From the IMG/VR virus record IMGVR_UViG_2711768037_000009, positions 1 to 38,628 of that record: a stretch of 38,628 bases of DNA; one strand, written 5' to 3'. The notes beneath the pieces were generated by a model. It was not told where the DNA came from, ran no database searches, and saw only the letters and a program-made list of their open reading frames with translations. The position numbers and the translations under genes are program-made. Of the stretch, positions 1 through 18,044 are shown in pieces; within the stretch, counting starts at the first letter, position 1; the number at the start of each line of letters is the position of its first letter. Source of the stretch: a virus. Its lineage: Duplodnaviria; Heunggongvirae; Uroviricota; Caudoviricetes.

Positions 1-259
1 TGAAGGTTCTGACAAACTGCTACGCCTGACGCTGGATCTCGGCGGCGAAAAGCGTAATGTCTTCTCCGGCATTCGTTCTGCCTACCCGGATCCGCAGGCA
101 CTGATTGGTCGTCACACCATTATGGTGGCTAACCTGGCACCACGTAAAATGCGCTTCGGTATCTCTGAAGGCATGGTGATGGCTGCTGGCCCTGGCGGGA
201 AAGATATCTTCCTGTTAAGCCCGGATGTCGGTGCTAAACCTGGCCACCAGGTTAAGTAA
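1..259 (+). CDS. metG: 3' end of methionyl-tRNA synthetase (C-terminal tRNA-binding domain); partial, start lies outside window
   Basis: Open frame from window edge to TAA at 257-259; translation ...[85 protein letters not shown] matches my recollection of the enterobacterial MetG C-terminus. Confidence 0.85.
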
Positions 260-860: not shown

Positions 861-1430
861 ATGGATGTGATGGAAACCAATAACCGACATACAAAACCTT
901 TGAATAACATTTATGCGTGGATTTTAGCTTTTATTCCAATTTGCTTCGGCATTCCGAACGAAGAGTATGCAAATTATGCTGCATTAATTGGAAGTTTAGC
1001 TGCCATCGGATTATTAGTGGCTGACAGAATGGCGATTTCGGAATCCGGCTATGAGCCACCTGCTATTTTATGGGGAATAGTTCTCATGCCAGTCTACCTA
1101 TGGAAGCGCGCGACTATAACGAAGAGCAGCAGACTACCATTTATTATAGTCGTTGCCTTGATGGCTGGTCTTGTCTTCATTGTCATACCGAAACAGGAAG
1201 ATAGTGTCATTGAGGACGCAGCCTGCCCTGTTGTGACAACTATTCTGAAAGAACATAATGGTTCTACTGCGGCAAAATGCATCAAGGTTAAAATTGACGA
1301 CAAGGTAACTGATAAGTTCTACAGAGCAACTGCTACACTGGATAATGGTAATGATATAAACATAACACTGGAGCTTGCCGGTAGAGAGAAATTGTATGTC
1401 CGTGTGCCAGGTGTTTATTTGAACGATTAA
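861..1430 (+). CDS. Predicted multi-pass inner-membrane protein (189 aa), function unknown
   Basis: ATG start; three to four hydrophobic helices (AWILAFIPICFGI, AALIGSLAAIGLLVA, ILWGIVLMPVYLW, LPFIIVVALMAGLVFIVI) followed by ~90-aa soluble C-terminal domain. Confidence 0.6.
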   Translation: MDVMETNNRHTKPLNNIYAWILAFIPICFGIPNEEYANYAALIGSLAAIGLLVADRMAISESGYEPPAILWGIVLMPVYLWKRATITKSSRLPFIIVVALMAGLVFIVIPKQEDSVIEDAACPVVTTILKEHNGSTAAKCIKVKIDDKVTDKFYRATATLDNGNDINITLELAGREKLYVRVPGVYLND

Positions 1431-1564
1431 CGGATAAAAACATTGATAATGGCGGTCACAATTTGATTCTTTTCTATAAGAATCCGTTGATCGCCACTAC
1501 TCCCCTTCCATACCTGCAATCACATCCTTAAATATCAATAGGTTAACGTTGTTTATACAAATAA

Positions 1565-1582
1565 GAAAACAACTAAATAACA
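1565..1582. repeat. Direct repeat AAAACAACTAAATAACA, copy 1 (copy 2 at ~1795-1811)
   Basis: Identical 17-bp word found twice ~230 bp apart in the ORF-poor region. Confidence 0.5.
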
Positions 1583-1794
1583 GTTCAACGAAACGTCAAC
1601 GCTTTCTCCCGATTTGGTCTAAAAATTGACGTTTTCACACATCACTTCTTATACCCGTAATCTACGCAGCAGACAGCGCCACAGCGTCCAATTTTCACCA
1701 CAGACGCCCCAACACACTACCAACAAAAACACACGCTCAAAATCTCTCCCGTTGCGTTACACAACCATATAAACAACTTATTTTCAGGCATAAC

Positions 1795-1811
1795 AAAACA
1801 ACTAAATAACA
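1795..1811. repeat. Direct repeat AAAACAACTAAATAACA, copy 2
   Basis: Identical to the word at ~1565-1582. Confidence 0.5.
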
Positions 1812-1830
1812 CATATGCCATTCCCCAAAA

Positions 1831-1925
1831 CAACCAACCTCTTTATGGCAGGCTACCGAAAAGACCCACCTCTTCTCCCAGGCTACCGGACAACCAACCT
1901 AACTTTCACAGGCAATCCGAAAACA
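1831..1925. repeat. Iteron-like tandem repeats, cluster 1 (3 copies, ~30-bp period, core CCTCTT-N5-CAGGCTACCG)
   Basis: CAGGCTACCG at ~1849 and ~1879, degenerate CAGGCAATCCG at ~1909; CCTCTT/CCTAAC at ~1838, 1869, 1898. Confidence 0.5.
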
Positions 1926-2425
1926 TTCATACGCGCGATACCCACGACACGCCATTCCCCAAACAGCGAAGCAACACCTGAACCACTGAAACCCCAACGA
2001 AGTCTGTAACCGCAAGGATTCTCTCAATCCCAAAAGACACGAAACATAACAATCACGGGAAACGCCATTACCCAATACACGAACAACTACAAAAGCCTTT
2101 CACACGCACTCCAGACAAACAACTCAAACACAATAACGAAAGGAATCGCCCACCTGCCATTACTCCACACACGGAGAAGAACAATCACCAAAACGATGAG
2201 AACACCCCATAGAAGAACCACCGCAAAACGAACGAAACCACATACACCGACAGAGAGAACAACACACCCAATTCACCAACAGAATTAGTCGCCGTATAGA
2301 ACGTTCTGGAAGGAGTGAGCATTAACGCCTATAGAGAGGTTGAGACAGATAAAACATAACATGTATAGCGAAGAAGCCAGGTATGTATAACTAAGAAATA
2401 CACAACATGTATAAGCTGGGAGGGA

Positions 2426-2449
2426 AGGAGGGGTGTCGCCTCCTTTTTC
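2426..2449 (+). terminator. Intrinsic terminator ending a rightward transcript of the A+C-rich region
   Basis: AGGAGG-ggtgtcg-CCTCCT hairpin followed by TTTTT. Confidence 0.5.
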
Positions 2450-2496
2450 GTATTTATTCAACATCTTACCATCATCCCCCGTATCCCCTACGGTCA

Positions 2497-2700
2497 TCCT
2501 TCGGTCCATACAGGGAAAAGGCTGCATCCCGCTACAAAAACGGCTGGGTTGCCTTCGGGAAACGGTCGAGTTGCCTGTGTGGATTTCGGGAAAAGGCTCG
2601 ATGCCGGTTCAGGAACGGCGGCGTACCGGTATAGCGAGAGGGAGAGTTGCGGCTGGCCACCTGCAATGTTCGGGAAGAAGAGAGGCGCTCACGTGAAGGC
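2497..2700. other. GC-rich block with repeated TTCGGGAAA(A)GGCT-type motifs; candidate structured RNA or protein-binding array
   Basis: Motif variants at ~2510, 2553, 2583, 2669 and 2793; only overlapping six-frame ORFs without RBS. Confidence 0.3.
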
Positions 2701-2955
2701 GAACCTACTTACCGCTGGATTCCCTCTGAATGCCCAGTTACAGCGTAATTGTGCCAGACAGCCAACGGGTCACAATCGATTTCAGTAGGTTTTCGGGGAG
2801 ATGATTATTCTGCCCACCAGCCATCTTCGGCCACTAAATCAGAATAATGTAAAAGTGTACTCTGTACTGAACCTGAAAACTCACTGCCAAAACCACATTC
2901 ACCGGAATAAAATCCTTTTTCGCCTGTGCGTTATTGCGATAATAACACCATTAAG

Positions 2956-2968
2956 AAAACATCTTGTT
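2956..2968. promoter_or_regulatory. AAACA-TCT-TGTTT palindrome just upstream of the RBS of the 2982 gene
   Basis: Member of the AAACA-N3-TGTTT family; coordinates +/-2. Confidence 0.35.
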
Positions 2969-2981
2969 TAAGGATTGCTTT

Positions 2982-3311
2982 ATGTTTGCAAATATCGACA
3001 TCAACCAAATTAAGAAATTGACTCAAAAAGAGTTTGACCAGTTTTATGAGCTGGAAGGTTGGTCTTCCACTCTGATTAATTCAAGATGGGTGCTGGAGCT
3101 GATGACTCGTGATGATGCACCTGCTTTGATGATTAGCGACCTGGGTGATGATGCTGACTTTATGGATATGAGCGAATTTTGTGTGGACACATACAACCGC
3201 AGCCAGAAGTACTACTTCACATGCGATAGCGAAAATGACGTGATTTCTAAGGTCTATCTTCACCTCGTCCAGCATTGGGACGTTCAGGAGTTTCTTGAGG
3301 TATTCGCGTAA
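2982..3311 (+). CDS. Small acidic protein (110 aa), function unknown
   Basis: ORF track 2964..3311; ATG at residue 7 preceded by AAGGA; about 21 Asp+Glu against 8 Lys+Arg. Confidence 0.6.
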   Translation: MFANIDINQIKKLTQKEFDQFYELEGWSSTLINSRWVLELMTRDDAPALMISDLGDDADFMDMSEFCVDTYNRSQKYYFTCDSENDVISKVYLHLVQHWDVQEFLEVFA

Positions 3312-3441
3312 CCCCAACCAAAGCCAGCATTGCTGGCTTAATTTCATCTGTAGCCGCAGGGAAGAACCTGCATATCGCTCATGCGCCTGATCAATATGCT
3401 TTGTAGCCGTTTTCTTACTGGTATTATTTACGCAATTGAGA

Positions 3442-3454
3442 AAACAAGTTATTT
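3442..3454. promoter_or_regulatory. AAACA-AGT-TATTT motif (one mismatch) upstream of the 3466 gene
   Basis: AAACA-N3-TGTTT family member overlapping the 5' leader. Confidence 0.3.
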
Positions 3455-3465
3455 ACGAGGTTGTG

Positions 3466-3777
3466 ATGGATAAGTCACTGATACTGGGGCTGGACAAAGA
3501 CCAGAAGAGAAAAGAGAAGCCTGCACTGGTTGCTCAATTAACTTTGCTGGACATCGTTGCCAATGGAACCTCTATTCGTCTGTTCCGTGAAACAGCGGTG
3601 TCTTTCGATAAAAACACTTTTACTCGTTATGTAATGAATGTTCGTCGCCAGCGTGGAAAAGGCTGGATGGCATTTCAAAGAATGTGGCCGGAACATCAGC
3701 TGGAACTGGCTTTGATGGAAGTAAACCGCGTGGCCCAGCAAGAAATTCAGAGAGCATCAGTGATGGCAATAGCCTGA
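3466..3777 (+). CDS. Hypothetical protein (103 aa)
   Basis: ORF track 3436..3777; ATG at 3466 preceded by GAGG. Confidence 0.6.
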   Translation: MDKSLILGLDKDQKRKEKPALVAQLTLLDIVANGTSIRLFRETAVSFDKNTFTRYVMNVRRQRGKGWMAFQRMWPEHQLELALMEVNRVAQQEIQRASVMAIA

Positions 3778-3811
3778 TAATGTGCAAGTGGTAATTAGTC
3801 GACAGTACGAC

Positions 3812-3839
3812 AGCCCCGCCATCCTTACGGGGCTTTTTT
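3812..3839 (+). terminator. Intrinsic terminator
   Basis: AGCCCCG-ccatcctta-CGGGGCT hairpin followed by TTTTTT. Confidence 0.7.
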
Positions 3840-3903
3840 GTATTGTAGGTGCATACCTATGACTATAAAATAGAAAAATAACTAAGACACTACGGAGAGT
3901 GAA

Positions 3904-4299
3904 ATGACCGTTAAACGCGAAAAACTGACAGTTGATGTTTACTATGCCTCTGAAACCGCCGAAGGTAAGAATGTGGCAAAAATCACCGTTGTTACGTACA
4001 ACACCGAAACTGGTGCCGAAGTACAGGCCAGTACGATCGTGCGTAAAGGTGATGCCTCCGGCGGAGAGTACGCGACTCAATACCAGTCCATTCTCGATGC
4101 AACTGACCCGCTGCTGCTGAAAATCGAGAACTACTTCCGCCAGGTTGATGAAGAGGTGTTTGAAACCATGATGAGTATGGTTAATTCCGTATTCACCTCC
4201 AGTCTGAACACCAGCACCACCTGGATTGGTCAGTACGGCCTGCGCATTACCTCTGGCATTCCTGCCGACACCTTAATCCCTGAAAGCGTATTCGCTTAA
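3904..4299 (+). CDS. Hypothetical protein (131 aa)
   Basis: ATG start preceded by GGAGAG; bracketed by terminators. Confidence 0.65.
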   Translation: MTVKREKLTVDVYYASETAEGKNVAKITVVTYNTETGAEVQASTIVRKGDASGGEYATQYQSILDATDPLLLKIENYFRQVDEEVFETMMSMVNSVFTSSLNTSTTWIGQYGLRITSGIPADTLIPESVFA

Positions 4300-4308
4300 T
4301 CCTCTTTG

Positions 4309-4336
4309 AATGGCGCGTAAACCGCGCCATTTTATT
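4309..4336 (+). terminator. Intrinsic terminator
   Basis: ATGGCGCG-taaac-CGCGCCAT hairpin followed by TTTATT. Confidence 0.75.
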
Positions 4337-4344
4337 ATGCCCGA

Positions 4345-4357
4345 TAACAATTTGTTT
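4345..4357. promoter_or_regulatory. TAACAATTTGTTTT motif, near-identical to the copy at 342-356
   Basis: AACA-ATT-TGTTT followed by the same TCTGC as at 357-361. Confidence 0.4.
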
Positions 4358-4523
4358 TCTGCCTTATCTGATTTGTGAAAATGATTTCACTGAAGCAACT
4401 TAATAAGGAAACCATCATGGACTTGATATCTATATCGAGACGCAGCCTAAAAACGATCTGAATAACGAGGCATCCAGAAAGCAGGTTGCTTACTTCCGTA
4501 AGTTCAATGCGCTCGTTGGGTGG

Positions 4524-4790
4524 ATGGAGCGCAACGTAGGTGAAGTCGAAAATTGTGAGCTTTTAGAATTAACGATGAATGACATTTGTCTTCTGAAAGC
4601 TCATTTGATGCACATAAACGAAAGCAATTGCGAAGAGTACTTGCCTACTCGGGAAGGTTTTTTCTTCGGCAGTCAGGAGTACGACGAAGGTTACTGGCAT
4701 GACGTGGATAAGCTGAAAAAACTTGTGGAAGACCTGATCAGGAACCACGACTTTCACAATAACAGACTGACCTTCTGCGCCTGGTGGTAA
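4524..4790 (+). CDS. Hypothetical protein (88 aa); true start uncertain
   Basis: ATG at 4524 with poor SD spacing; same frame is open upstream to ~4407 without an ATG; a strong RBS (AAGGA) at ~4405 serves a 14-codon ORF in another frame. Confidence 0.5.
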   Translation: MERNVGEVENCELLELTMNDICLLKAHLMHINESNCEEYLPTREGFFFGSQEYDEGYWHDVDKLKKLVEDLIRNHDFHNNRLTFCAWW

Positions 4791-4793
4791 ATA

Positions 4794-4937
4794 TGGGCGA
4801 TTTCAAGAAACGCCTGAAGGAAAGAGCCGAGATGGTCAGAAAGCAAAACGCATCTTCTGTCATCAGATACGCAAGGCTGTTTAGTCGCAACAACAAATCA
4901 GTTGAGGAAAAGATCCTTAGCGTAATCGGACGATAAT
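4794..4937 (+). CDS. Possible small basic protein (47 aa)
   Basis: ATG 4 nt after the previous stop, GGTGG upstream; below the ORF-track size cut-off. Confidence 0.3.
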
Positions 4938-4942
4938 TATTA

Positions 4943-4972
4943 AGGCCATCAGCATTGGTGGTCTTAAATGAC
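4943..4972. repeat. Degenerate copy of hairpin element AGGCCAYCAG...TGGTGGYCTTAAATGAC
   Basis: ~30-bp similarity to the perfect hairpin at ~5483-5514. Confidence 0.35.
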
Positions 4973-5110
4973 TTTTAATAACCGAAGGTTAGTTTGAAAC
5001 CTGGCTATCAACTTCCAGAACCTTTCTTGTGTATTCAGCCTGTATTAACTTCTTTTATGCCTTATCTACACTGCGATAATTACACCAACAAGAAAACAAG
5101 AGGAAAGCAG

Positions 5111-5308
5111 ATGAAAACTATTACTCAAGTCCAGCAAATCTGGGCGCAGCTGGCAAATGAGCCTGTGGATAACAATCAGCAGCTTGAGCGCGCATTTCAC
5201 CATTTTGAAGCCGGTGACAGCATCATTGACGTGTGGGTGTGGATCGACGGGCTGTGTCCAGATATCACCGTTGCCCAGTTGCAGCAGGTGGGGAGGCACG
5301 ATGACTGA
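5111..5308 (+). CDS. Hypothetical protein (66 aa)
   Basis: ORF track 4994..5308; ATG at 5111 preceded by AGGAAAG. Confidence 0.5.
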   Translation: MKTITQVQQIWAQLANEPVDNNQQLERAFHHFEAGDSIIDVWVWIDGLCPDITVAQLQQVGRHDD

Positions 5309-5350
5309 TTTCACCATTACCCCAAAAGCACAAAATGTATTCCTTGAATC

Positions 5351-5515
5351 ATGGCTGAATTTGCCGCATTAAGTGAGAGTATTACGATGGCAAAATTGAC
5401 CAGAGCGCAGGAGCATGACCTGCGACGCGCAATTTATGATCTTGAAAGAGTTCGTTGCAGCACATCGAAAGCAATGAGATATAGGCCACCAGTTAACGCT
5501 GGTGGCCTTAAATGA
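5351..5515 (+). CDS. Possible small protein (42-54 aa; ATG at 5351 or 5387)
   Basis: Open frame ending in TGA inside the downstream hairpin element; weak RBS. Confidence 0.25.
   Translation: MAEFAALSESITMAKLTRAQEHDLRRAIYDLERVRCSTSKAMRYRPPVNAGGLK
5483..5508 (+). other. Perfect 10-bp-stem hairpin AGGCCACCAG-ttaacg-CTGGTGGCCT; terminator-like but no U-tract
   Basis: Seen directly; related words at ~4943 and ~6200. Confidence 0.45.
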
Positions 5516-5527
5516 CCATCCTGTTCC

Positions 5528-5604
5528 CCGCAGGCTAAAAACACCAACCTCTTACCTCCAGGCAACCGACAAACCTACCTGTTCCCGTCCGGCTACCGCA
5601 ACTT
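5528..5604. repeat. Iteron-like tandem repeats, cluster 2 (3 copies, same family and orientation as cluster 1)
   Basis: GCAGGCTAAAA, CCAACCTCTTACCTCCAGGCAACCG, CCTACCTGTTCCCGTCCGGCTACCG. Confidence 0.5.
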
Positions 5605-5651
5605 ACCACTTTGACGCCTTATTCGTACAACGATAATTAACACCAGCAAGA

Positions 5652-5664
5652 AAACAATTTGTTA
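5652..5664. promoter_or_regulatory. AAACA-ATT-TGTTA motif upstream of the 5685 gene
   Basis: AAACA-N3-TGTTT family, one mismatch. Confidence 0.35.
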
Positions 5665-5684
5665 TTTACGATAAGGAATTAATC

Positions 5685-6167
5685 ATGAATTTTATCGCTA
5701 CTGTAAACGCACCCGCACATGGCAATATCGCAGTAACGTTCTCTGACATTGAAAAACGAGTACTTGGTGCATGGCGCGACAATGAGACGGTAGAACTGTC
5801 AGCACAAGAAAAATGCATTATTGCACGTGACATCATTGGTAATCGTCGTTACTCGCGGGTATTTGAGAAAGCGTATGTGGTAAATTCTGGATTCGGAACG
5901 TTCGTCTTTCCGGTGCGCTCCGGGCGATTCTGCCAGTCCAAGCTGATTGAGTTCGCTACGCAGATTTCTGTCTGGATTAAAACTCAATCGTCGTTCAAAT
6001 TTTCCGACGATGAAGCAGTATCGCAGGGGATGCAGATCGCCAACAATGCGATTAAATGCAAAAACATTACGTATGCCGCTGGCGTTGACACATGGAAACT
6101 GTTTTGCGCTAACTTTATGCTGAATGTATACGCAAGCAACCGCATCCACATCCTTGATGGCGTGTAA
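5685..6167 (+). CDS. Hypothetical protein (160 aa)
   Basis: ATG preceded by AAGGA at 8-nt spacing; followed by a terminator. Confidence 0.65.
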   Translation: MNFIATVNAPAHGNIAVTFSDIEKRVLGAWRDNETVELSAQEKCIIARDIIGNRRYSRVFEKAYVVNSGFGTFVFPVRSGRFCQSKLIEFATQISVWIKTQSSFKFSDDEAVSQGMQIANNAIKCKNITYAAGVDTWKLFCANFMLNVYASNRIHILDGV

Positions 6168-6175
6168 CTGAGAAG

Positions 6176-6199
6176 AGGGCCAGAAACGGCCCTTTCTCT
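6176..6199 (+). terminator. Intrinsic terminator
   Basis: AGGGCC-agaaac-GGCCCT hairpin followed by TTCTCT. Confidence 0.55.
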
Positions 6200-6251
6200 A
6201 TAGCCACCAGTTGCCGCAGGGAAATTTTCAGAAACGGCAAGGAACGCATTC

Positions 6252-6560
6252 ATGAGCCGACGGGAAACGGCCAGGATTTTTTCGGGAAACGGCGGCATTC
6301 GCCTTGATGTAGAAAAACATCGGGAAGCTGGTGGAATCCAACCAGCGGCTGTCGGACAGGTGAGCGGGGAAAATTATGATGACTTTCGTCGCCCGAGACA
6401 TCCAGATTTCTTTCGTAGCGTAATCACATACGTGATTAATTGGTGTGATTATGTGAGAAATCACGCGCACATAATACGCGAGCGGATACAGAACAAAACA
6501 AAATGCCGATCCGCGCCGACAATTAAACGCGGATCACATAGCAAGACAAAAAGCCAATGA
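6252..6560 (+). CDS. Doubtful ORF (102 aa, Arg-rich) in a region dense with inverted repeats
   Basis: ATG with AAGGA upstream, but atypical composition and overlapping palindromes. Confidence 0.25.
   Translation: MSRRETARIFSGNGGIRLDVEKHREAGGIQPAAVGQVSGENYDDFRRPRHPDFFRSVITYVINWCDYVRNHAHIIRERIQNKTKCRSAPTIKRGSHSKTKSQ
6420..6540. promoter_or_regulatory. Cluster of inverted repeats (ATCAC/GTGAT words, ATTATGTG-N12-CACATAAT, GATCCGCG-N12-CGCGGATC); candidate operator or origin
   Basis: Several dyad symmetries within ~120 bp in the convergent intergenic region. Confidence 0.3.
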
Positions 6561-6758
6561 TTAACTATGCGCTATAGCGCAATATAACGCGTTTTAAGCG
6601 CATTAATGTGTTAAGTAATGGGTATGTACTGGCAAGGATATAAAAGCGCGTCTATGGCGTTATTTTGGTGCTTGTTTTTATGTTGTTGGAGTGAGTCAAA
6701 GACAATAAAAAACGCGCTAATGATGGCGCGTTATGGTGGGAGTATTGGAAACGAAAAA

Positions 6759-6777
6759 AGCGCCCACTATGGGCGCT
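6759..6777. terminator. Bidirectional intrinsic terminator
   Basis: AGCGCCC-actat-GGGCGCT hairpin flanked by A-run upstream and T-run downstream. Confidence 0.65.
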
Positions 6778-6782
6778 CGATT

Positions 6783-7013
6783 TTATTTGTGTAAACTGAT
6801 TTTAAATCCCATTTCTACAAACGCTTTTAACATTAAAAATATATCAGCGTCGTTCACGTCTGCTTTTTTTCGCTCCTGGTCGCTCAATAAGTCAATTTTG
6901 CGCGTCGTTTCATCTATAAGCTCGACTGCGCGCCCAGCGTAACCAGCGATCCCAGCGATGCGATTAACATAATATTCATTATGGACGTTAACGCCAGCGA
7001 TAAGAACAAACAT
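6783..7013 (-). CDS. Small protein (76 aa), unknown
   Basis: ATG preceded by perfect SD AAGGAG at 8-nt spacing. Confidence 0.6.
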   Translation of the reverse strand: MFVLIAGVNVHNEYYVNRIAGIAGYAGRAVELIDETTRKIDLLSDQERKKADVNDADIFLMLKAFVEMGFKISLHK

Positions 7014-7285: not shown

Positions 7286-7936
7286 TTACGCTTTGAAAGC
7301 ATCAGCTAAATAATTGTAGAAATCATTTTTAATGAAGCGATATTGCTGAGTACCAGCTTTTGCACTCCCAGCTCCTTTGACTTTTTCAACAAGTCCAAGA
7401 CGTTCGCAAAGATTGATCAACTGGTTGGCTTGAGTATAGCCAGCGTCCAATTTAATTTCGCACGCTTTTTTAGCTTCATTCATTAAATCGAAAACAGCGC
7501 CATTGGTGAACGTGTCGATCTCGTCGTTAATCATATCGATTAAAGCGAATACACGAGATCCAGACATATCAGCGACGGAATAAACACATTTTCCAGCTTT
7601 AATGGATTTAACCAAATAAACCAGTTTTTCCAGTGAATAACTATTAGTCATAGCGTCACGAAAAAATACTTCTGGCGCTTGTTTGCTTGCTTTAATCGCA
7701 TAGTAGAAAACAGAGCATAATTTTTCGTCTTCTACAGCGTTTACAACGTTGTTGATGAAGTAAGCAAGTTTAGTGGTCGCAGCTTGCATATTTGCTTTGT
7801 CTGCTTTAGTGTGCGTACCATTTTTATAATGTTCGTTATATGTTTGAGTTGCCAGATCTGCTTTTTCGCGCAGCTCGTCGGATACAATGGAAGCAGCTTC
7901 AATGATGGATTTTTTAGAAATGATAATGTTAGCCAT
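7286..7936 (-). CDS. Hypothetical protein (216 aa)
   Basis: ORF track 7286..7945; second ATG has AAGGA at proper spacing. Confidence 0.6.
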   Translation of the reverse strand: MANIIISKKSIIEAASIVSDELREKADLATQTYNEHYKNGTHTKADKANMQAATTKLAYFINNVVNAVEDEKLCSVFYYAIKASKQAPEVFFRDAMTNSYSLEKLVYLVKSIKAGKCVYSVADMSGSRVFALIDMINDEIDTFTNGAVFDLMNEAKKACEIKLDAGYTQANQLINLCERLGLVEKVKGAGSAKAGTQQYRFIKNDFYNYLADAFKA

Positions 7937-8197
7937 GTTGAACATCCTTACGAAAAATTAAAATGAATTTATTTTTTGCTGTCGTTAGCCAGCTCGCTTT
8001 CGACGAGTTCAATTATCGATACGTGAAAAAAGATTGCAAGTGTTTTTTTTAAATTTTTTGCAGGGGTGAAAGTCCTAGAAATAAAAGCGAGATCCTCGAA
8101 GGTGTTCCCTAAATAAATAATAAATTCCGGCTTTTGACCTTATATATTTATACGGGGAGAATTGAATGAGTGTTAAACGAAGGGCATGTAAAATAAT

Positions 8198-8231: not shown

Positions 8232-8756
8232 TTAAAACGGAAGGATTCGTTCAACCCAATCGAAGAAAACAAGTATTTTTCTTCCGTCTTTCAACTTAAG
8301 AGTGACCTGACAAGCATCAACGCCTCTTGATACCCCTTCTATTTCACGACCGTCTGCCATGTAGACCCTTATAGATTGGTCGTTTTGATAAGCCTTGCGA
8401 CATATCGCAAAAAAGTCACGGCGTGATGGCTGATTGTCAACATAGTCTGGATGTATTGTTAGCCTACCTTTGAACTCGCGAGCAATGCCATCGATTACAC
8501 CTGATTCAATTGTGCTAATGCGCTCAAGTGGGAGTCTTATACGATTTTCTTTATCATATGGAAGCGGGCATAAATCTAGCTTATTGCGGGAAGGCATTGT
8601 CCCCTGAACGTACATGCAAAACACCTGACCGTCTTCAAGCGTGACTCTTACAGGAATGTTGTTCTTCCGCCAGAACATAAGTATGTTTTCAGCATGTTCG
8701 TAGTCTCGCGGCCAGACTTCAGCCGGTATGCCGTAGGTGATGTCCAATGTTCTCAT
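8232..8756 (-). CDS. Hypothetical protein (174 aa) with two similar beta-rich segments
   Basis: ATG start; start overlaps the stop of the upstream gene; no domain recognised. Confidence 0.6.
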   Translation of the reverse strand: MRTLDITYGIPAEVWPRDYEHAENILMFWRKNNIPVRVTLEDGQVFCMYVQGTMPSRNKLDLCPLPYDKENRIRLPLERISTIESGVIDGIAREFKGRLTIHPDYVDNQPSRRDFFAICRKAYQNDQSIRVYMADGREIEGVSRGVDACQVTLKLKDGRKILVFFDWVERILPF

Positions 8757-12527: not shown

Positions 12528-12556
12528 GTAACTACTTAGTGGAATGTAGCAATAAA

Positions 12557-13237
12557 ATGGACGTAAAAATCACGATTTTGCAGGTTGATGTTGCCAACCT
12601 TCGCCCGAATACCTGGAACACCAATTCGGTTGGTGCGCAGAATTTCGAAAAACTGAAAGGTTCTATCGAAAAATTGGGCTTTTTTAAGCCAATTTTGGCT
12701 CGTGAGCTTGAAGATGGATTTTTTGAAATCCTCGGCGGCGAACATCGCTGGCGTGCTGCTATTGAGCAAGGAATTTCAACGGTTCCTGTGCTTTCTGTGG
12801 GCAAAATTAGCGATGTCGTGGCAAAACAGATGTCACTGGTGGACAACGAGCGATACGGTGAAGACGACCAAATCGCATTGCAACGCTTCATTGAAGAAAT
12901 TCAGTCAGAACTTGACTATCAACTGTCTGAAATCGCCCCGTATGACGACGAAATCTCGATGGTTTTAGCAAAAGAGGCGGCAATCGACCTTGAAGCACTG
13001 GAGGCGTTGTCTCGTGGTAGTGATGAGCCTGTCGATACCGACAAACGAGAGAAAACCGAACGTGTGGGTGCGGAACATCAGACCATGCGCTTCAAAGTAA
13101 CTTTCGATGCGTCAGATCGTGTTGCAGAAACCATAAAAAACATCATCAAAGAGCAGGCTATTAACACCGGTAATGAAATGGAGAACGCTGGTGAGGCTCT
13201 GGTGTGGCTGGTCGACTACTACAAGGAGCGTATGTAA
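12557..13237 (+). CDS. ParB/Srx-superfamily (ParB-like nuclease domain) protein 1
   Basis: ORF track 12539..13237; ATG at 12557; ParB-box-like GGEHRWRAA. Confidence 0.7.
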   Translation: MDVKITILQVDVANLRPNTWNTNSVGAQNFEKLKGSIEKLGFFKPILARELEDGFFEILGGEHRWRAAIEQGISTVPVLSVGKISDVVAKQMSLVDNERYGEDDQIALQRFIEEIQSELDYQLSEIAPYDDEISMVLAKEAAIDLEALEALSRGSDEPVDTDKREKTERVGAEHQTMRFKVTFDASDRVAETIKNIIKEQAINTGNEMENAGEALVWLVDYYKERM

Positions 13238-13905
13238 TGACCAAAAAGTTTGAAATCGTATATCGCGACCCGGCAGATCTTATTCCCTATGAGATGAATG
13301 CCAAAAAGCATGATGAACAGCAGATCCGAGATCTAGCCGCAGCCATTAAAAAGCGCGGATTTGACCAGCCAATTACGGTCGATAAGAACGACGTAATTAT
13401 TACTGGCCACGGCCGCCGTGAGGCTGCAATTTTTGCTGGACTTGAGCGCGTACCGGTTATTGTTCGCGATGATCTCAGTGATGACGAGGTTCGTGCGAAG
13501 CGCCTTGAAGATAACCGACTTGCCAGCATTGATTACGATGCAATTAAGCTACAGAAAGAGCTTGAGTCGCTTGTTCTGGACGATATCGAGGTTTTCGGCT
13601 TTGAAGAGCGTGAGTTGAATGTTCTCGTTGGCAGCATGACAGAAGAAATGGACACCGACTCGCTAGTTATCGATCTTGGCGAAGAAACTAAACGACAGAA
13701 GGATGAACACACCGAGATCAGTCGCGAAGTTGCAGCGGAAGAAGTACGTGTTGTCGACGTATTGGGCTTTAAAACGCTTCCTGCTGGCTCTGCCATTGTT
13801 GTTGGTGATTTGCTTGCCCACATGGAAGAAATGACGGGAGAAAGCGGGGTAGACGCATTTGTGGCATATGCGGAGAAGATCTCTTCCGGGGAGATGGCTG
13901 CATGA
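13237..13905 (+). CDS. ParB/Srx-superfamily (ParB-like nuclease domain) protein 2
   Basis: ATG overlaps the upstream TAA; AAGGAG at 9-nt spacing; ParB-box-like GHGRREAA. Confidence 0.7.
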   Translation: MTKKFEIVYRDPADLIPYEMNAKKHDEQQIRDLAAAIKKRGFDQPITVDKNDVIITGHGRREAAIFAGLERVPVIVRDDLSDDEVRAKRLEDNRLASIDYDAIKLQKELESLVLDDIEVFGFEERELNVLVGSMTEEMDTDSLVIDLGEETKRQKDEHTEISREVAAEEVRVVDVLGFKTLPAGSAIVVGDLLAHMEEMTGESGVDAFVAYAEKISSGEMAA

Positions 13906-16155: not shown

Positions 16156-16788
16156 ATGACTGTCGAAAAAGACGAGGTAAAAACTCGCCTGACACCAGCG
16201 GAGTGGGCCGAAGCTGAAGCCAAATGGACGTCAGGCGAATATACACTCTCAAAGCTGGAGGAAGAGTACGGCATTCGTCGTGAAACACTCTCCAGACATT
16301 TCAAAAAGCGAGGATTAGAGAAAGGCGCGGACTCTGTTGGGAAGATGGTTCGTGAGTCTCTTAAATCTGACGCAGAGCTTCGCGCTAAAGCCCGTGCGGA
16401 AAAGATAGAAGAACGTCGTACACGTTATGACGGCTGGGCGTATGCGTTGGGGCAGATGGTGATGGTCGAAGTCACTACGGCCAAACGTGAGAGAAAGCCT
16501 TTAGGGGCGATTGAGGATTCTCTCAAGAGCTTACAGAGAGCCAGTAATACCCTTGCAAAATGCTTTGAAGTTTCGTCCAAAGCATTGGGCATGGATCATG
16601 CGGAAAATGACGAGGAAGAAATTCCGAACCTGGTATTTGGTGAGCTTACGCCTTCCCAGGTGGCGAAATTACGTCAGGAAGACGACGAGCCTGAAATCAT
16701 CGATGACGAATTGCTTGAGACGTTGGAAGAAGAAGCTCTAAGCGAATTTGATGCGACAGATGATGGAAGTGAAGGGGAGGACGAATAA
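16156..16788 (+). CDS. Terminase small subunit (210 aa)
   Basis: N-terminal HTH-like segment, acidic C-terminal tail, immediately upstream of and overlapping the large terminase; AGAGGG SD. Confidence 0.65.
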   Translation: MTVEKDEVKTRLTPAEWAEAEAKWTSGEYTLSKLEEEYGIRRETLSRHFKKRGLEKGADSVGKMVRESLKSDAELRAKARAEKIEERRTRYDGWAYALGQMVMVEVTTAKRERKPLGAIEDSLKSLQRASNTLAKCFEVSSKALGMDHAENDEEEIPNLVFGELTPSQVAKLRQEDDEPEIIDDELLETLEEEALSEFDATDDGSEGEDE

Positions 16789-18044
16789 TGGCAATCCCGT
16801 CCTCGCTCAGTCTTGTGCAACTGCATTCTGGACAGATGAAAGTCTTCCAGTCTCCGCATCGATTTAAAGTTGTTTGTGCTGGTCGACGCTGGGGAAAATC
16901 CCGGTTGTCGATCTCCACTATTATTCGTGCGGCGGCAAAGGAAAAAAAGCAAAGGGTCTGGTATGTCGCTCCTACTTACCAGATGGCTCGCCAGATTTTG
17001 TGGGACGACCTACAGGAAGTTCTGCCTCGTAAGTGGGTTAGGAAAAAGAACGACACCACGATGACAATCGTGTTGAAGAACGGTTCGGAGATCGCCCTCA
17101 AAGGTGCTGATAAGCCTGACACGCTGCGCGGCGTAGCGTTGCATTTTGTAGTGCTTGATGAATTTCAGGATATGAAGGCTGACACCTGGTACAAGGTGTT
17201 ACGACCTACTCTTTCATCGACACGCGGCGGCGCACTGATCATTGGTACGCCAAAAGGCTTCTCGGAATTTCACAAACTGTGGACTATAGGCCAGAACGTA
17301 GAGCTGCAAAGAAAGGGACAGTGGAAGAGCTGGCAGTTTGTAACTGCCGATTCTCCGTTTGTACCTACGGCGGAAATTGAAGCTGCTAAGAACGATATGG
17401 ACCCCAAATCGTTCGCTCAGGAGTACCTAGCCAGCTTTGAGAACATGTCCGGGCGCGTTTACTACCCGTTCGATCGTAACGTGCATGTAAAACCGCTTCA
17501 GTTCAACCCTCGGTTGCCTATATGGGTAGGGCAGGACTTCAACATTGACCCGATGTCTTCCGTAATTTTGCAACCTCAGCCAAACGGTGAGCTATGGGCA
17601 ATTGATGAATTGGTGCTCTTTTCCTCTAACACGGCAGAAGTGTGTGATGAGCTGGAGAGACGTTTCTGGCGATGGAAATCACAGATAACGGTATTTCCTG
17701 ATCCGGCTGGTGCTTATCGTCAACATGCTCGCGGTGAGTCTGACGTCGACATATTCAAAGAGAAGGGATTCTTGCGTGTCGATTATTCAAAAAAACACCC
17801 GCCAATTGCGGATCGTGTTAATGCAGTTAACCGAATGCTGATGACCGCATCTGGGGATATCAGGCTGTATATCGATCCGAAATGCAAGCATTTGATTGAT
17901 TCGCTGGAAAAGGTCATCTACAAGCCTGGAACACGAGATATGGATAAGACAGGTGGCATTGAGCATAGTGCAGACGCATTGGGCTATCCAGTACATCGTA
18001 GGTATCCAGTAAAAAACCGTGTTATTCTTGGTGGTTCAAGATAG
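16788..18044 (+). CDS. Terminase large subunit (418 aa)
   Basis: Walker A KVVCAGRRWGKS near N-terminus; ATG overlaps terS stop; followed by portal. Confidence 0.85.
   Translation: MAIPSSLSLVQLHSGQMKVFQSPHRFKVVCAGRRWGKSRLSISTIIRAAAKEKKQRVWYVAPTYQMARQILWDDLQEVLPRKWVRKKNDTTMTIVLKNGSEIALKGADKPDTLRGVALHFVVLDEFQDMKADTWYKVLRPTLSSTRGGALIIGTPKGFSEFHKLWTIGQNVELQRKGQWKSWQFVTADSPFVPTAEIEAAKNDMDPKSFAQEYLASFENMSGRVYYPFDRNVHVKPLQFNPRLPIWVGQDFNIDPMSSVILQPQPNGELWAIDELVLFSSNTAEVCDELERRFWRWKSQITVFPDPAGAYRQHARGESDVDIFKEKGFLRVDYSKKHPPIADRVNAVNRMLMTASGDIRLYIDPKCKHLIDSLEKVIYKPGTRDMDKTGGIEHSADALGYPVHRRYPVKNRVILGGSR

Follow-up and report, generated by a model that had tools for sequence, protein, structure and literature searches.

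A conserved stretch of a phage-plasmid without an agreed gene

The DNA analysed here, the 38,628 nucleotides of IMG/VR virus record IMGVR_UViG_2711768037_000009 (hereafter the window), is from an Escherichia coli phage-plasmid of the SSU5/pHCM2 type, and the subject of this report is a GC-rich block at 2497–2800, between a terminator and the first early gene. The surrounding 1.55-kb stretch (1450–3000) was matched in 244 of 5426 complete E. coli genomes, always on plasmids (chromosomes, 0). Its closest match is the 109.6-kb plasmid NZ_CP027369.1 (97.7% identity), and others are Escherichia phage Cyrano (92.6%), Salmonella phage SSU5 (~70%) and Klebsiella phage-plasmids. Plasmid-borne matches together with the likeness to Cyrano, SSU5 and the Klebsiella phage-plasmids therefore place the element, which is ~110 kb in size, in the SSU5/pHCM2 type. 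Besides the E. coli genomes, 669 PLSDB plasmids show SSU5/pHCM2-like matches. Along the window the gene order runs from plasmid-borne metG through small early genes to the terminase, head and tail genes.

Positions 1440–2980 form 1.5 kb that are conserved and have no agreed gene: the region aligns over its length in 14 elements from Escherichia, Salmonella, Enterobacter, Citrobacter, Klebsiella and Cronobacter, RefSeq leaves it uncalled in many records, and phage records place differing hypothetical open reading frames (ORFs) there. An earlier note on this DNA had described a GC-rich block with degenerate repeats right after a terminator, and both parts of that description hold, with a GC content of 0.59 in 2500–2700 against ~0.45 for the whole window and a hairpin with a T-run directly ahead, whose sequence core GGAGGGG..TCGC..TT is kept in 14 relatives. 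The repeats, which we call array 1 (2511–2684), follow this terminator, belonging to an A/C-rich upstream unit, and stand ahead of the promoter that serves the first early gene. Array 1 is a real and deeply conserved series of direct repeats, helically phased and in one orientation, with a paralogous partner (array 2), and the pair flanks the early genes (Table 1). Judging from the sequence, we think it rather probable that the block is one of two conserved arrays of putative protein-binding sites in DNA, with the core (C/A)GGGAAA(A/C)GG(C/T).

Repeat words of array 1

The five repeat words that the earlier note had quoted are present where it placed them, namely CAGGGAAAAGGCTGCATCCCG (2511), TTCGGGAAACGGTCGAG (2554), TTCGGGAAAAGGCTCGATGCCGG (2585), TTCGGGAAGAAG (2669) and TTCGGGGAG (2792). 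Their enrichment is real, as none of 2000 dinucleotide-preserving shuffles of 2497–2800 reached the observed count for any word: GGGAAA[AC]GG occurs three times in 2513–2596 (0.02 expected), TTCGGG four times (0.19 expected) and [CT]TTCGG likewise four times (0.28 expected). Over the 38.6-kb window the exact core is found five times against an expectation of 0.48, always on the plus strand, with three copies in array 1 and the other two at 6262 and 6284. The consensus was drawn from all exact cores and their flanks, and its information is concentrated in ~11 bp. Only the three exact copies of array 1 are strong (position weight matrix (PWM) scores of 17.5–20.6); degenerate copies, still in phase, stand at 2535, ~2611 and 2672, and a weak one at 2792.

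Some copies that are degenerate in the window have counterparts elsewhere. The equivalent of copy 5 is strong (GGGAAACGGGTAC) in pHCM2, Enterobacter and Citrobacter, and that of the outlying partial copy reads GCGGGAA(A/T)TGGTGAA in SSU5 and pHCM2, 77–78 bp past the last strong copy. A second, minor motif family (CGGTC/CCGTCGG) lies near 2498–2510 and is expanded in a distant relative.

Geometry and conservation among relatives

The start-to-start distances between cores are 22, 22 and 31 bp in the window, 22, 22, 22 and 31 bp in Cyrano, and 44, 22, 31 and 22 bp in SSU5 and pHCM2, while a Cronobacter plasmid (FS2-type) carries four perfect copies at exactly 22, 22 and 22 bp. Across 14 relatives, the strong copies share a single orientation and a spacing of 22, 22, 31 and 22 bp, that is, 2, 2, 3 and 2 helical turns; besides the usual 22 bp, some sites stand 11, 31 or 44 bp apart. 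Spacings of 2, 3 or 4 helical turns therefore put the strong sites on the same face of the helix.

Gains and losses among relatives amount to exactly one 22-bp unit. Cyrano, SSU5 and most relatives have one extra unit directly before copy 3; the unit GGGGAACGGCTGGAGGTTTTCA of Cyrano and SSU5 is missing from the window and its closest relative, and one Citrobacter plasmid lacks another. Across 12 relatives, column identity is 0.91 in the cores versus 0.73 in the columns between them. Even in a distant relative from Klebsiella quasipneumoniae (our locus L174, on a 145-kb contig), where the neighbouring proteins are ~53% identical, both arrays are retained, the core there reading GRAAACGG. This relative has the entire layout (L174, 12700–14400 and 8900–9600, both on the minus strand) and in addition shows a ~150-nt homopurine tract ahead of its terminator, three GCCGTA(T)AGA words and, around array 1, at least seven CCGTCGG words.

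A paralogous array beyond the early genes

The partner array at 6.2 kb went unmentioned in the earlier note. Its unit, GGGAAACGGCYRGRnnTTTTCR, has the strand and the 22-bp length found in array 1, and in the form GGGAAACGGCCAGGAAATTTTC it is plainly the array 1 unit; array 2 is conserved in SSU5 and in Klebsiella phages. It begins directly past a second terminator-like hairpin, so both arrays come after a terminator. A position-weight scan found no further strong sites in the window outside the two arrays, and the exact core is absent from the remaining ~70 kb of NZ_CP027369.1.

The two clusters carry one word in a single orientation, stand 3.7 kb apart and bracket an early-gene module at 2982–6167. 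This two-cluster layout, with 3–4 kb between the clusters, recurs in many IMG/VR contigs, and in Cronobacter-type viral contigs the module consists of two conserved genes (homologues of the 103- and 160-residue proteins) between the two arrays. In our scan for the motif pair or triple, most viral-contig matches were SSU5-type contigs with this layout and the others unrelated 7-bp microsatellites, and the matches in genome contigs were unrelated iteron arrays and other repeats, that is, analogues and not homologues.

Table 1 Features in and around the two arrays (window coordinates).
Feature	Position	Strand	Remarks
Intrinsic-terminator-like hairpin with T-run	2422–2449	+	10-pair stem; closes the A/C-rich upstream unit and directly precedes array 1
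Word CCTTCGGTCC	2498–2510	+	Directly before copy 1; conserved, CCT.CGG invariant
Copy 1, CAGGGAAAAGGCTGC	2511–2525 (core 2513–2521)	+	Strong, exact core; PWM 20.6
Copy 2, TACAAAAACGGCTGG	2533–2547	+	Degenerate; 22 bp past copy 1; PWM 4.9 (Cyrano equivalent 10.6)
Copy 3, TCGGGAAACGGTCGA	2555–2569 (core 2557–2565)	+	Strong, exact core
Copy 4, TCGGGAAAAGGCTCG	2586–2600 (core 2588–2596)	+	Strong; 31 bp (3 turns) past copy 3
Copy 5, TCAGGAACGGCGGC	2609–2622	+	Degenerate; its CGG lies 22 bp past the CGG of copy 4
Outlying partial copy, TCGGGAAGAAGAGAG	2670–2684	+	
Spacer from array 1 to early promoter	2690–2920		Variable; the weak TTCGGGGAG word (2792) falls here
Early promoter/operator cassette, TTATTGCGATAATAACACCA..AAGAAAACAnnnTGTTTA	2925–2975	+	Conserved; precedes the first early gene (2982–3311)
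Second terminator-like hairpin, GAAGAGGGCC-AGAAAC-GGCCCTTTCTCT	6172–6199	+	Ends the early module; loop reads AGAAACGG
Array 2	6219–6330	+	Strong copies 6262–6270 and 6284–6292 (22 bp apart); degenerate copies at 6219, 6229, 6241 and 6322
Run of 4–5 terminator-like hairpins	6464–6790	−	Shield array 2 from converging leftward genes

Neighbouring features

Past array 2, where rightward and leftward genes converge, window positions 6400–6790 are dense in GC-stem hairpins with A/T runs (nine terminator-like sites versus 2.4 expected), for example AACGCGCCA-ATGA-TGGCGCGTT and the bidirectional AGCGCCCA-nnn-TGGGCGCT.

On the other side, ahead of the first terminator, lies a leader that is arguably stranger than the arrays. 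Its 630 bp (1660–2290) are conserved family-wide and are 74% A+C on the plus strand (A 0.40, C 0.34, G 0.12, T 0.14). Two words recur in them, GCCATTACCC about every 100 bp (four to five copies) and CAGGCTACCG about every 31 bp (three copies). Any rightward transcript of the leader would be an unstructured, C-rich and G-poor RNA suited to Rho loading. The word AAGAAAACAACTAAATAAC occurs twice at the beginning of the non-coding stretch (1563–1582 and 1793–1811).

Between array 1 and the early promoter, the spacer is a mosaic point (compared with our handles L002, 3895–4137, and L011, 1889–2131). A repeated cassette, GCGATAAT(A/T)ACACCAnCAAGAAAACA, stands ahead of several small early genes (2937–2962, 5073–5100 and 5632–5660) and has the look of an operator, or an initial transcribed sequence, common to them. 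The phage-plasmid also carries full-length metG (methionine-tRNA ligase; window 1–259, continued upstream in NZ_CP027369.1) and apbC, which adjoin an S24 peptidase gene and the early region, and a block of four tRNA genes stands elsewhere on the plasmid.

A possible role for the two arrays

Array 1 works like an iteron or operator array. In the scheme that we propose, a sequence-specific protein encoded by the phage-plasmid would bind cooperatively along each array, and the same protein would probably also bridge the two, looping out the 3.2-kb early module. The resulting complex could keep the module controlled by blocking leak-through past the terminators and by holding the module silent or insulated while the element is a plasmid; alternatively, it could switch the module on after induction. 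This specific regulatory or looping role, taken by itself, is tentative and somewhat less likely than not; of the specific roles it is nevertheless the one that we prefer.

Several points count against the proposal. That the arrays loop DNA or act as roadblocks is something we purely infer, and their format is just as much that of replication iterons as that of regulatory sites. A segment with a 243-nt ORF on the minus strand, directed into array 1, takes the place of the spacer in SSU5, pHCM2 and some Enterobacter and Citrobacter elements, so that in this subgroup the site is not always shielded from transcription. Weak copies are spaced less regularly (38–41 bp), as are the sites of the distant K. 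quasipneumoniae relative (~12, 24, 35 and 47 bp), and because of these irregularities the phasing argument rests on the strong copies. Finally, the candidates that we considered did not yield a binding protein for the arrays: the conserved 160-residue neighbour has no recognisable fold match, and the winged-helix match of a second neighbour, of 219 residues, is generic, with nothing significant in a Foldseek search against viral models.

The 219-residue protein (7286–7945, minus strand) is encoded ~1 kb from array 2. It is conserved, its homology-search matches are almost all enterobacterial, many of them on ~100–110-kb contigs, and its structural model combines an N-terminal helical bundle with a C-terminal generic winged helix. 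This model makes the protein a candidate for DNA binding in the vicinity of array 2; that it binds the array sites is a guess. Scans of ten neighbouring proteins against Pfam, PHROGs, NCBIfam and PDB sequences returned no relatives, or PHROGs of unknown function, except for a 174-residue FljA-family protein (8232–8756, minus strand), which matches PF03614 ('repressor of phase-1 flagellin') with E 6e-81 and whose C-terminal part shows a weak Sm/Hfq-like match. Its Cyrano homologue is expressed in lysogens and up in macrophage conditions.

Replication iterons and a possible lytic origin

The earlier note had also suggested a second iteron array of a different family. As to form this stands, since array 1 consists of tandem direct repeats spaced 22, 22, 31 and 22 bp apart in one orientation, with helical phasing and variation by whole units, and its core is unlike the RepB iterons TATGCTGTCAGCGGT. 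The marks of a strict, Rep-bound iteron array at an origin are missing: no rep gene adjoins either array, the DnaA box TTWTNCACA is absent from 1400–3000 and 6100–6850, and no marked AT-rich unwinding element lies beside the arrays (AT reaches at most 0.68–0.78 in 40-bp windows, some distance off). Without an adjacent initiator, unwinding element or DnaA box, the arrays do not classify as a Rep origin. Nor did we find relevant DnaA, IHF, GATC or Chi signals near the arrays. GATC occurs once in 1400–3000, against ~7 predicted from the window average (171 sites in the window), and the Chi words at 2821 (minus) and 6327 (plus) are at the background frequency of the window and are not conserved.

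The recognisable initiator of the element is RepB (Rep_3), encoded at 81.5–82.7 kb of NZ_CP027369.1, 35 kb from the array. Downstream of its gene stand 11 iterons of the form (G/T)ATATGCTGTCAGCGGT(A/G)A (~82.7–83.2 kb of NZ_CP027369.1; L016, 30674–31222), which presumably constitute the plasmid-mode origin or its copy-control array. GGGAAAMGG does not occur in the 49-kb stretch that contains RepB, and the RepB iterons were rejected as the identity of array 1, given their different repeat family and the distance of 35 kb.

The arrays could also be cis elements for lytic (phage-mode) replication, which we consider unlikely. They would then form a bipartite origin like ori/crr of P4, or an origin with an enhancer, at which a phage-encoded initiator binds and loads the element's DnaB-like helicase, primase and DnaE, separately from the RepB origin of the plasmid state. 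The format is exactly that of classical iterons, and unrelated replicons have 22-bp tandem repeats with the same GGGAAAAGG core, in one case (L132) directly upstream of a Rep_3 initiator gene and in another (L173) adjoining a DnaA-box-like word, with AT-rich DNA also near. One short direct repeat indeed forms two clusters some kilobases from each other (2511–2684 and 6219–6330), both of them in terminator-shielded zones. The element also has the genes of a full replisome (DnaE, DnaB-like helicase, primase, RNase HI and ligase), but the only recognisable origin is that of RepB. Against this stand the features missing beside the arrays (a rep-like gene, a DnaA box, a GATC cluster and a marked unwinding element). 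Moreover, the replication genes lie at least 40 kb away, primase and DnaB-like helicase are separate genes, and no initiator was found.

A bolder proposal, which we regard as quite improbable, joins both GGGAAACGG arrays with the conserved 630-bp A/C-only leader and its repeat families into a single locus for control or replication in SSU5/pHCM2 phage-plasmids, of a sort not described before, where a dedicated bridging protein would choose between low-copy plasmid and phage-mode replication or early expression. If it were true, a clinically widespread phage-plasmid family would have its cis switch, or its lytic origin, in these arrays. Our literature searches on the SSU5/pHCM2 origin, iterons and FljA turned up no description of the array region, and searches with the motif strings return only primers; we likewise found no description of lysis-lysogeny control or of the lytic origin of SSU5/pHCM2-like elements.

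RNA, partition, packaging and coding

Explanations at the level of RNA, as a centromere, through packaging or by chance are less likely than an array of DNA-binding sites or a role in lytic replication, and the block itself is neither a gene nor a folded RNA. The overlapping six-frame ORFs that had been noticed here are real in that several frames of either strand contain stop-free stretches, yet their boundaries differ in each relative and no conserved in-register reading frame runs through the block. Differing ORF boundaries and frame-breaking 22-bp indels therefore show that the block is not coding.

The structured RNA with UUCG-type loops that the earlier note had entertained found no support. 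At the gathering threshold, Rfam gave 0 hits in the window (CsrB and CsrC included), and a permissive search of 1400–3000 returned a single chance-level match (E = 0.2; 23.7 bits versus a 40.2-bit cut-off). The minimum free energy of the block is no better than that of shuffled sequences (z of +0.47 on the plus and +0.99 on the minus strand), and for 12 relatives the consensus fold has an alifold energy of −7.4 kcal/mol with a covariation term of 0.01 and a structure conservation index of 0.11 (plus) or 0.10 (minus). In re-analysed RNA-seq of Cyrano lysogens (LF82), CYRAN_104, which covers the terminator and array 1, stands at ~14 fragments per kilobase per million (fpkm), a prophage background level similar to that of silent neighbours, and CYRAN_103, over the A/C-rich leader, at ~0 fpkm; these data are from lysogens only, and a lytic-phase transcript may still exist (PMC9928086, supplementary file 2).

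We hold it very unlikely, then, that the block acts as RNA, either through read-through or lytic transcripts whose repeated GGGAAACGG/GGA words are bound by an RNA-binding protein (host CsrA, with the block as a CsrB-type sponge, or the element's FljA-like protein) or through UUCG-capped hairpins. The copies do contain GGA, often as CAGGGA or CAGGAA; a spacing of ~22 nt would fit a dimeric binder, AGAAACGG forms the loop of the second terminator hairpin, and the FljA-family gene has its weak Sm-like match. However, no conserved hairpin loops present the words, and the block begins past a terminator with no promoter-like site at 2450–2510. Multiples of the helical turn would also be meaningless for RNA, and conservation extends over 9–11 nt, far beyond a GGA triplet.

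Very little credence goes to the arrays as plasmid-partition centromeres or as terminase recognition sites of the pac/cosB type. The parC, tubC and sopC centromeres and the sites of terminase small subunits are also short phased repeat arrays, and the window encodes two ParB_N proteins with an ATPase (12.5–14.5 kb) and terminase genes (16.2–18.0 kb). Neither array adjoins them, however: the distances are 6–10 kb to the ParB_N genes (12539–13905) and 10–14 kb to the genes of the small and large terminase subunits (16156–18044). Furthermore, ParB-type helix-turn-helix proteins normally bind palindromes, whereas the sites here are direct repeats, and the large terminase is T4-like, with a small subunit that has no Pfam family and is not Nu1-like. 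The R sites of lambda share CGTTTCC with the complement of the core, which is a lead only and not a test, and a lambda cosB-like reading was rejected on terminase type and distance. A small ParA-like ATPase is encoded at 4.1–4.8 kb of NZ_CP027369.1, ~40 kb away.

It is barely credible that the block is a chance product, a decaying remnant of slipped-strand duplication or a short gene (annotated as CYRAN_104): some phage records do annotate ORFs here and GC-rich DNA is naturally poor in stop codons, but six genera and the relative with ~53% protein identity all keep the core while the spacers drift, a paralogous array is retained at a second locus, 22-bp indels shift all frames, ORF limits vary between relatives, and RefSeq leaves the stretch uncalled in many records.

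Significance and comparison with known systems

SSU5/pHCM2-like phage-plasmids are common in E. coli, Klebsiella, Salmonella (including pHCM2 of S. Typhi), Enterobacter and Cronobacter, and they can carry resistance genes. A conserved pair of arrays around the early genes offers a concrete, mutable cis element for finding the protein of the early region or of phage-mode replication, and the array nature of the stretch explains why gene callers disagree over it.

Among known systems, sponge RNAs of the CsrB/RsmZ type resemble the block in having many GGA words at ~20-nt intervals in a G-rich stretch. They differ in that the block has no Rfam match, GGA-presenting hairpin loops or evident promoter, its signal in lysogens is at background, and its core spans 9–11 nt.

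In the satellite phage P4, ori and crr are two clusters of short repeats a few kilobases apart, thought to be bound and bridged by one protein; the alpha primase-helicase binds these repeats, which are octamers (TGTTCACC). Here we found neither an alpha-like protein nor the P4 octamer, and the likeness lies in the two clusters of one short direct repeat a few kilobases apart.

Iterons of the Rep_3 type (for example incC/incA of P1 and the arrays in L132, L171 and L173) share with our arrays the ~22-bp tandem direct repeats in a single orientation, the conserved core with a drifting spacer, the variation in copy number by whole units and, possibly, a distant second cluster. Unlike them, the arrays described here have no adjoining rep gene, DnaA box or AT-rich element, and the RepB iterons of the element lie 35 kb off. 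The arrays of L132 and L173 type, with the GGGAAAAGG core and a period of 22 bp, are analogous to ours without being homologous.

Looping operators and roadblocks form the last comparison. Lambda OL/OR and the flanking sites of phage 186 are palindromic operators for dimeric repressors and overlap promoters, whereas the sites here are asymmetric direct repeats, ~300 bp from the nearest promoter and without an assigned repressor. The two kinds of system are alike in having adjacent sites about two turns apart at two loci separated by a few kilobases, and in flanking regulated genes next to promoters and terminators.

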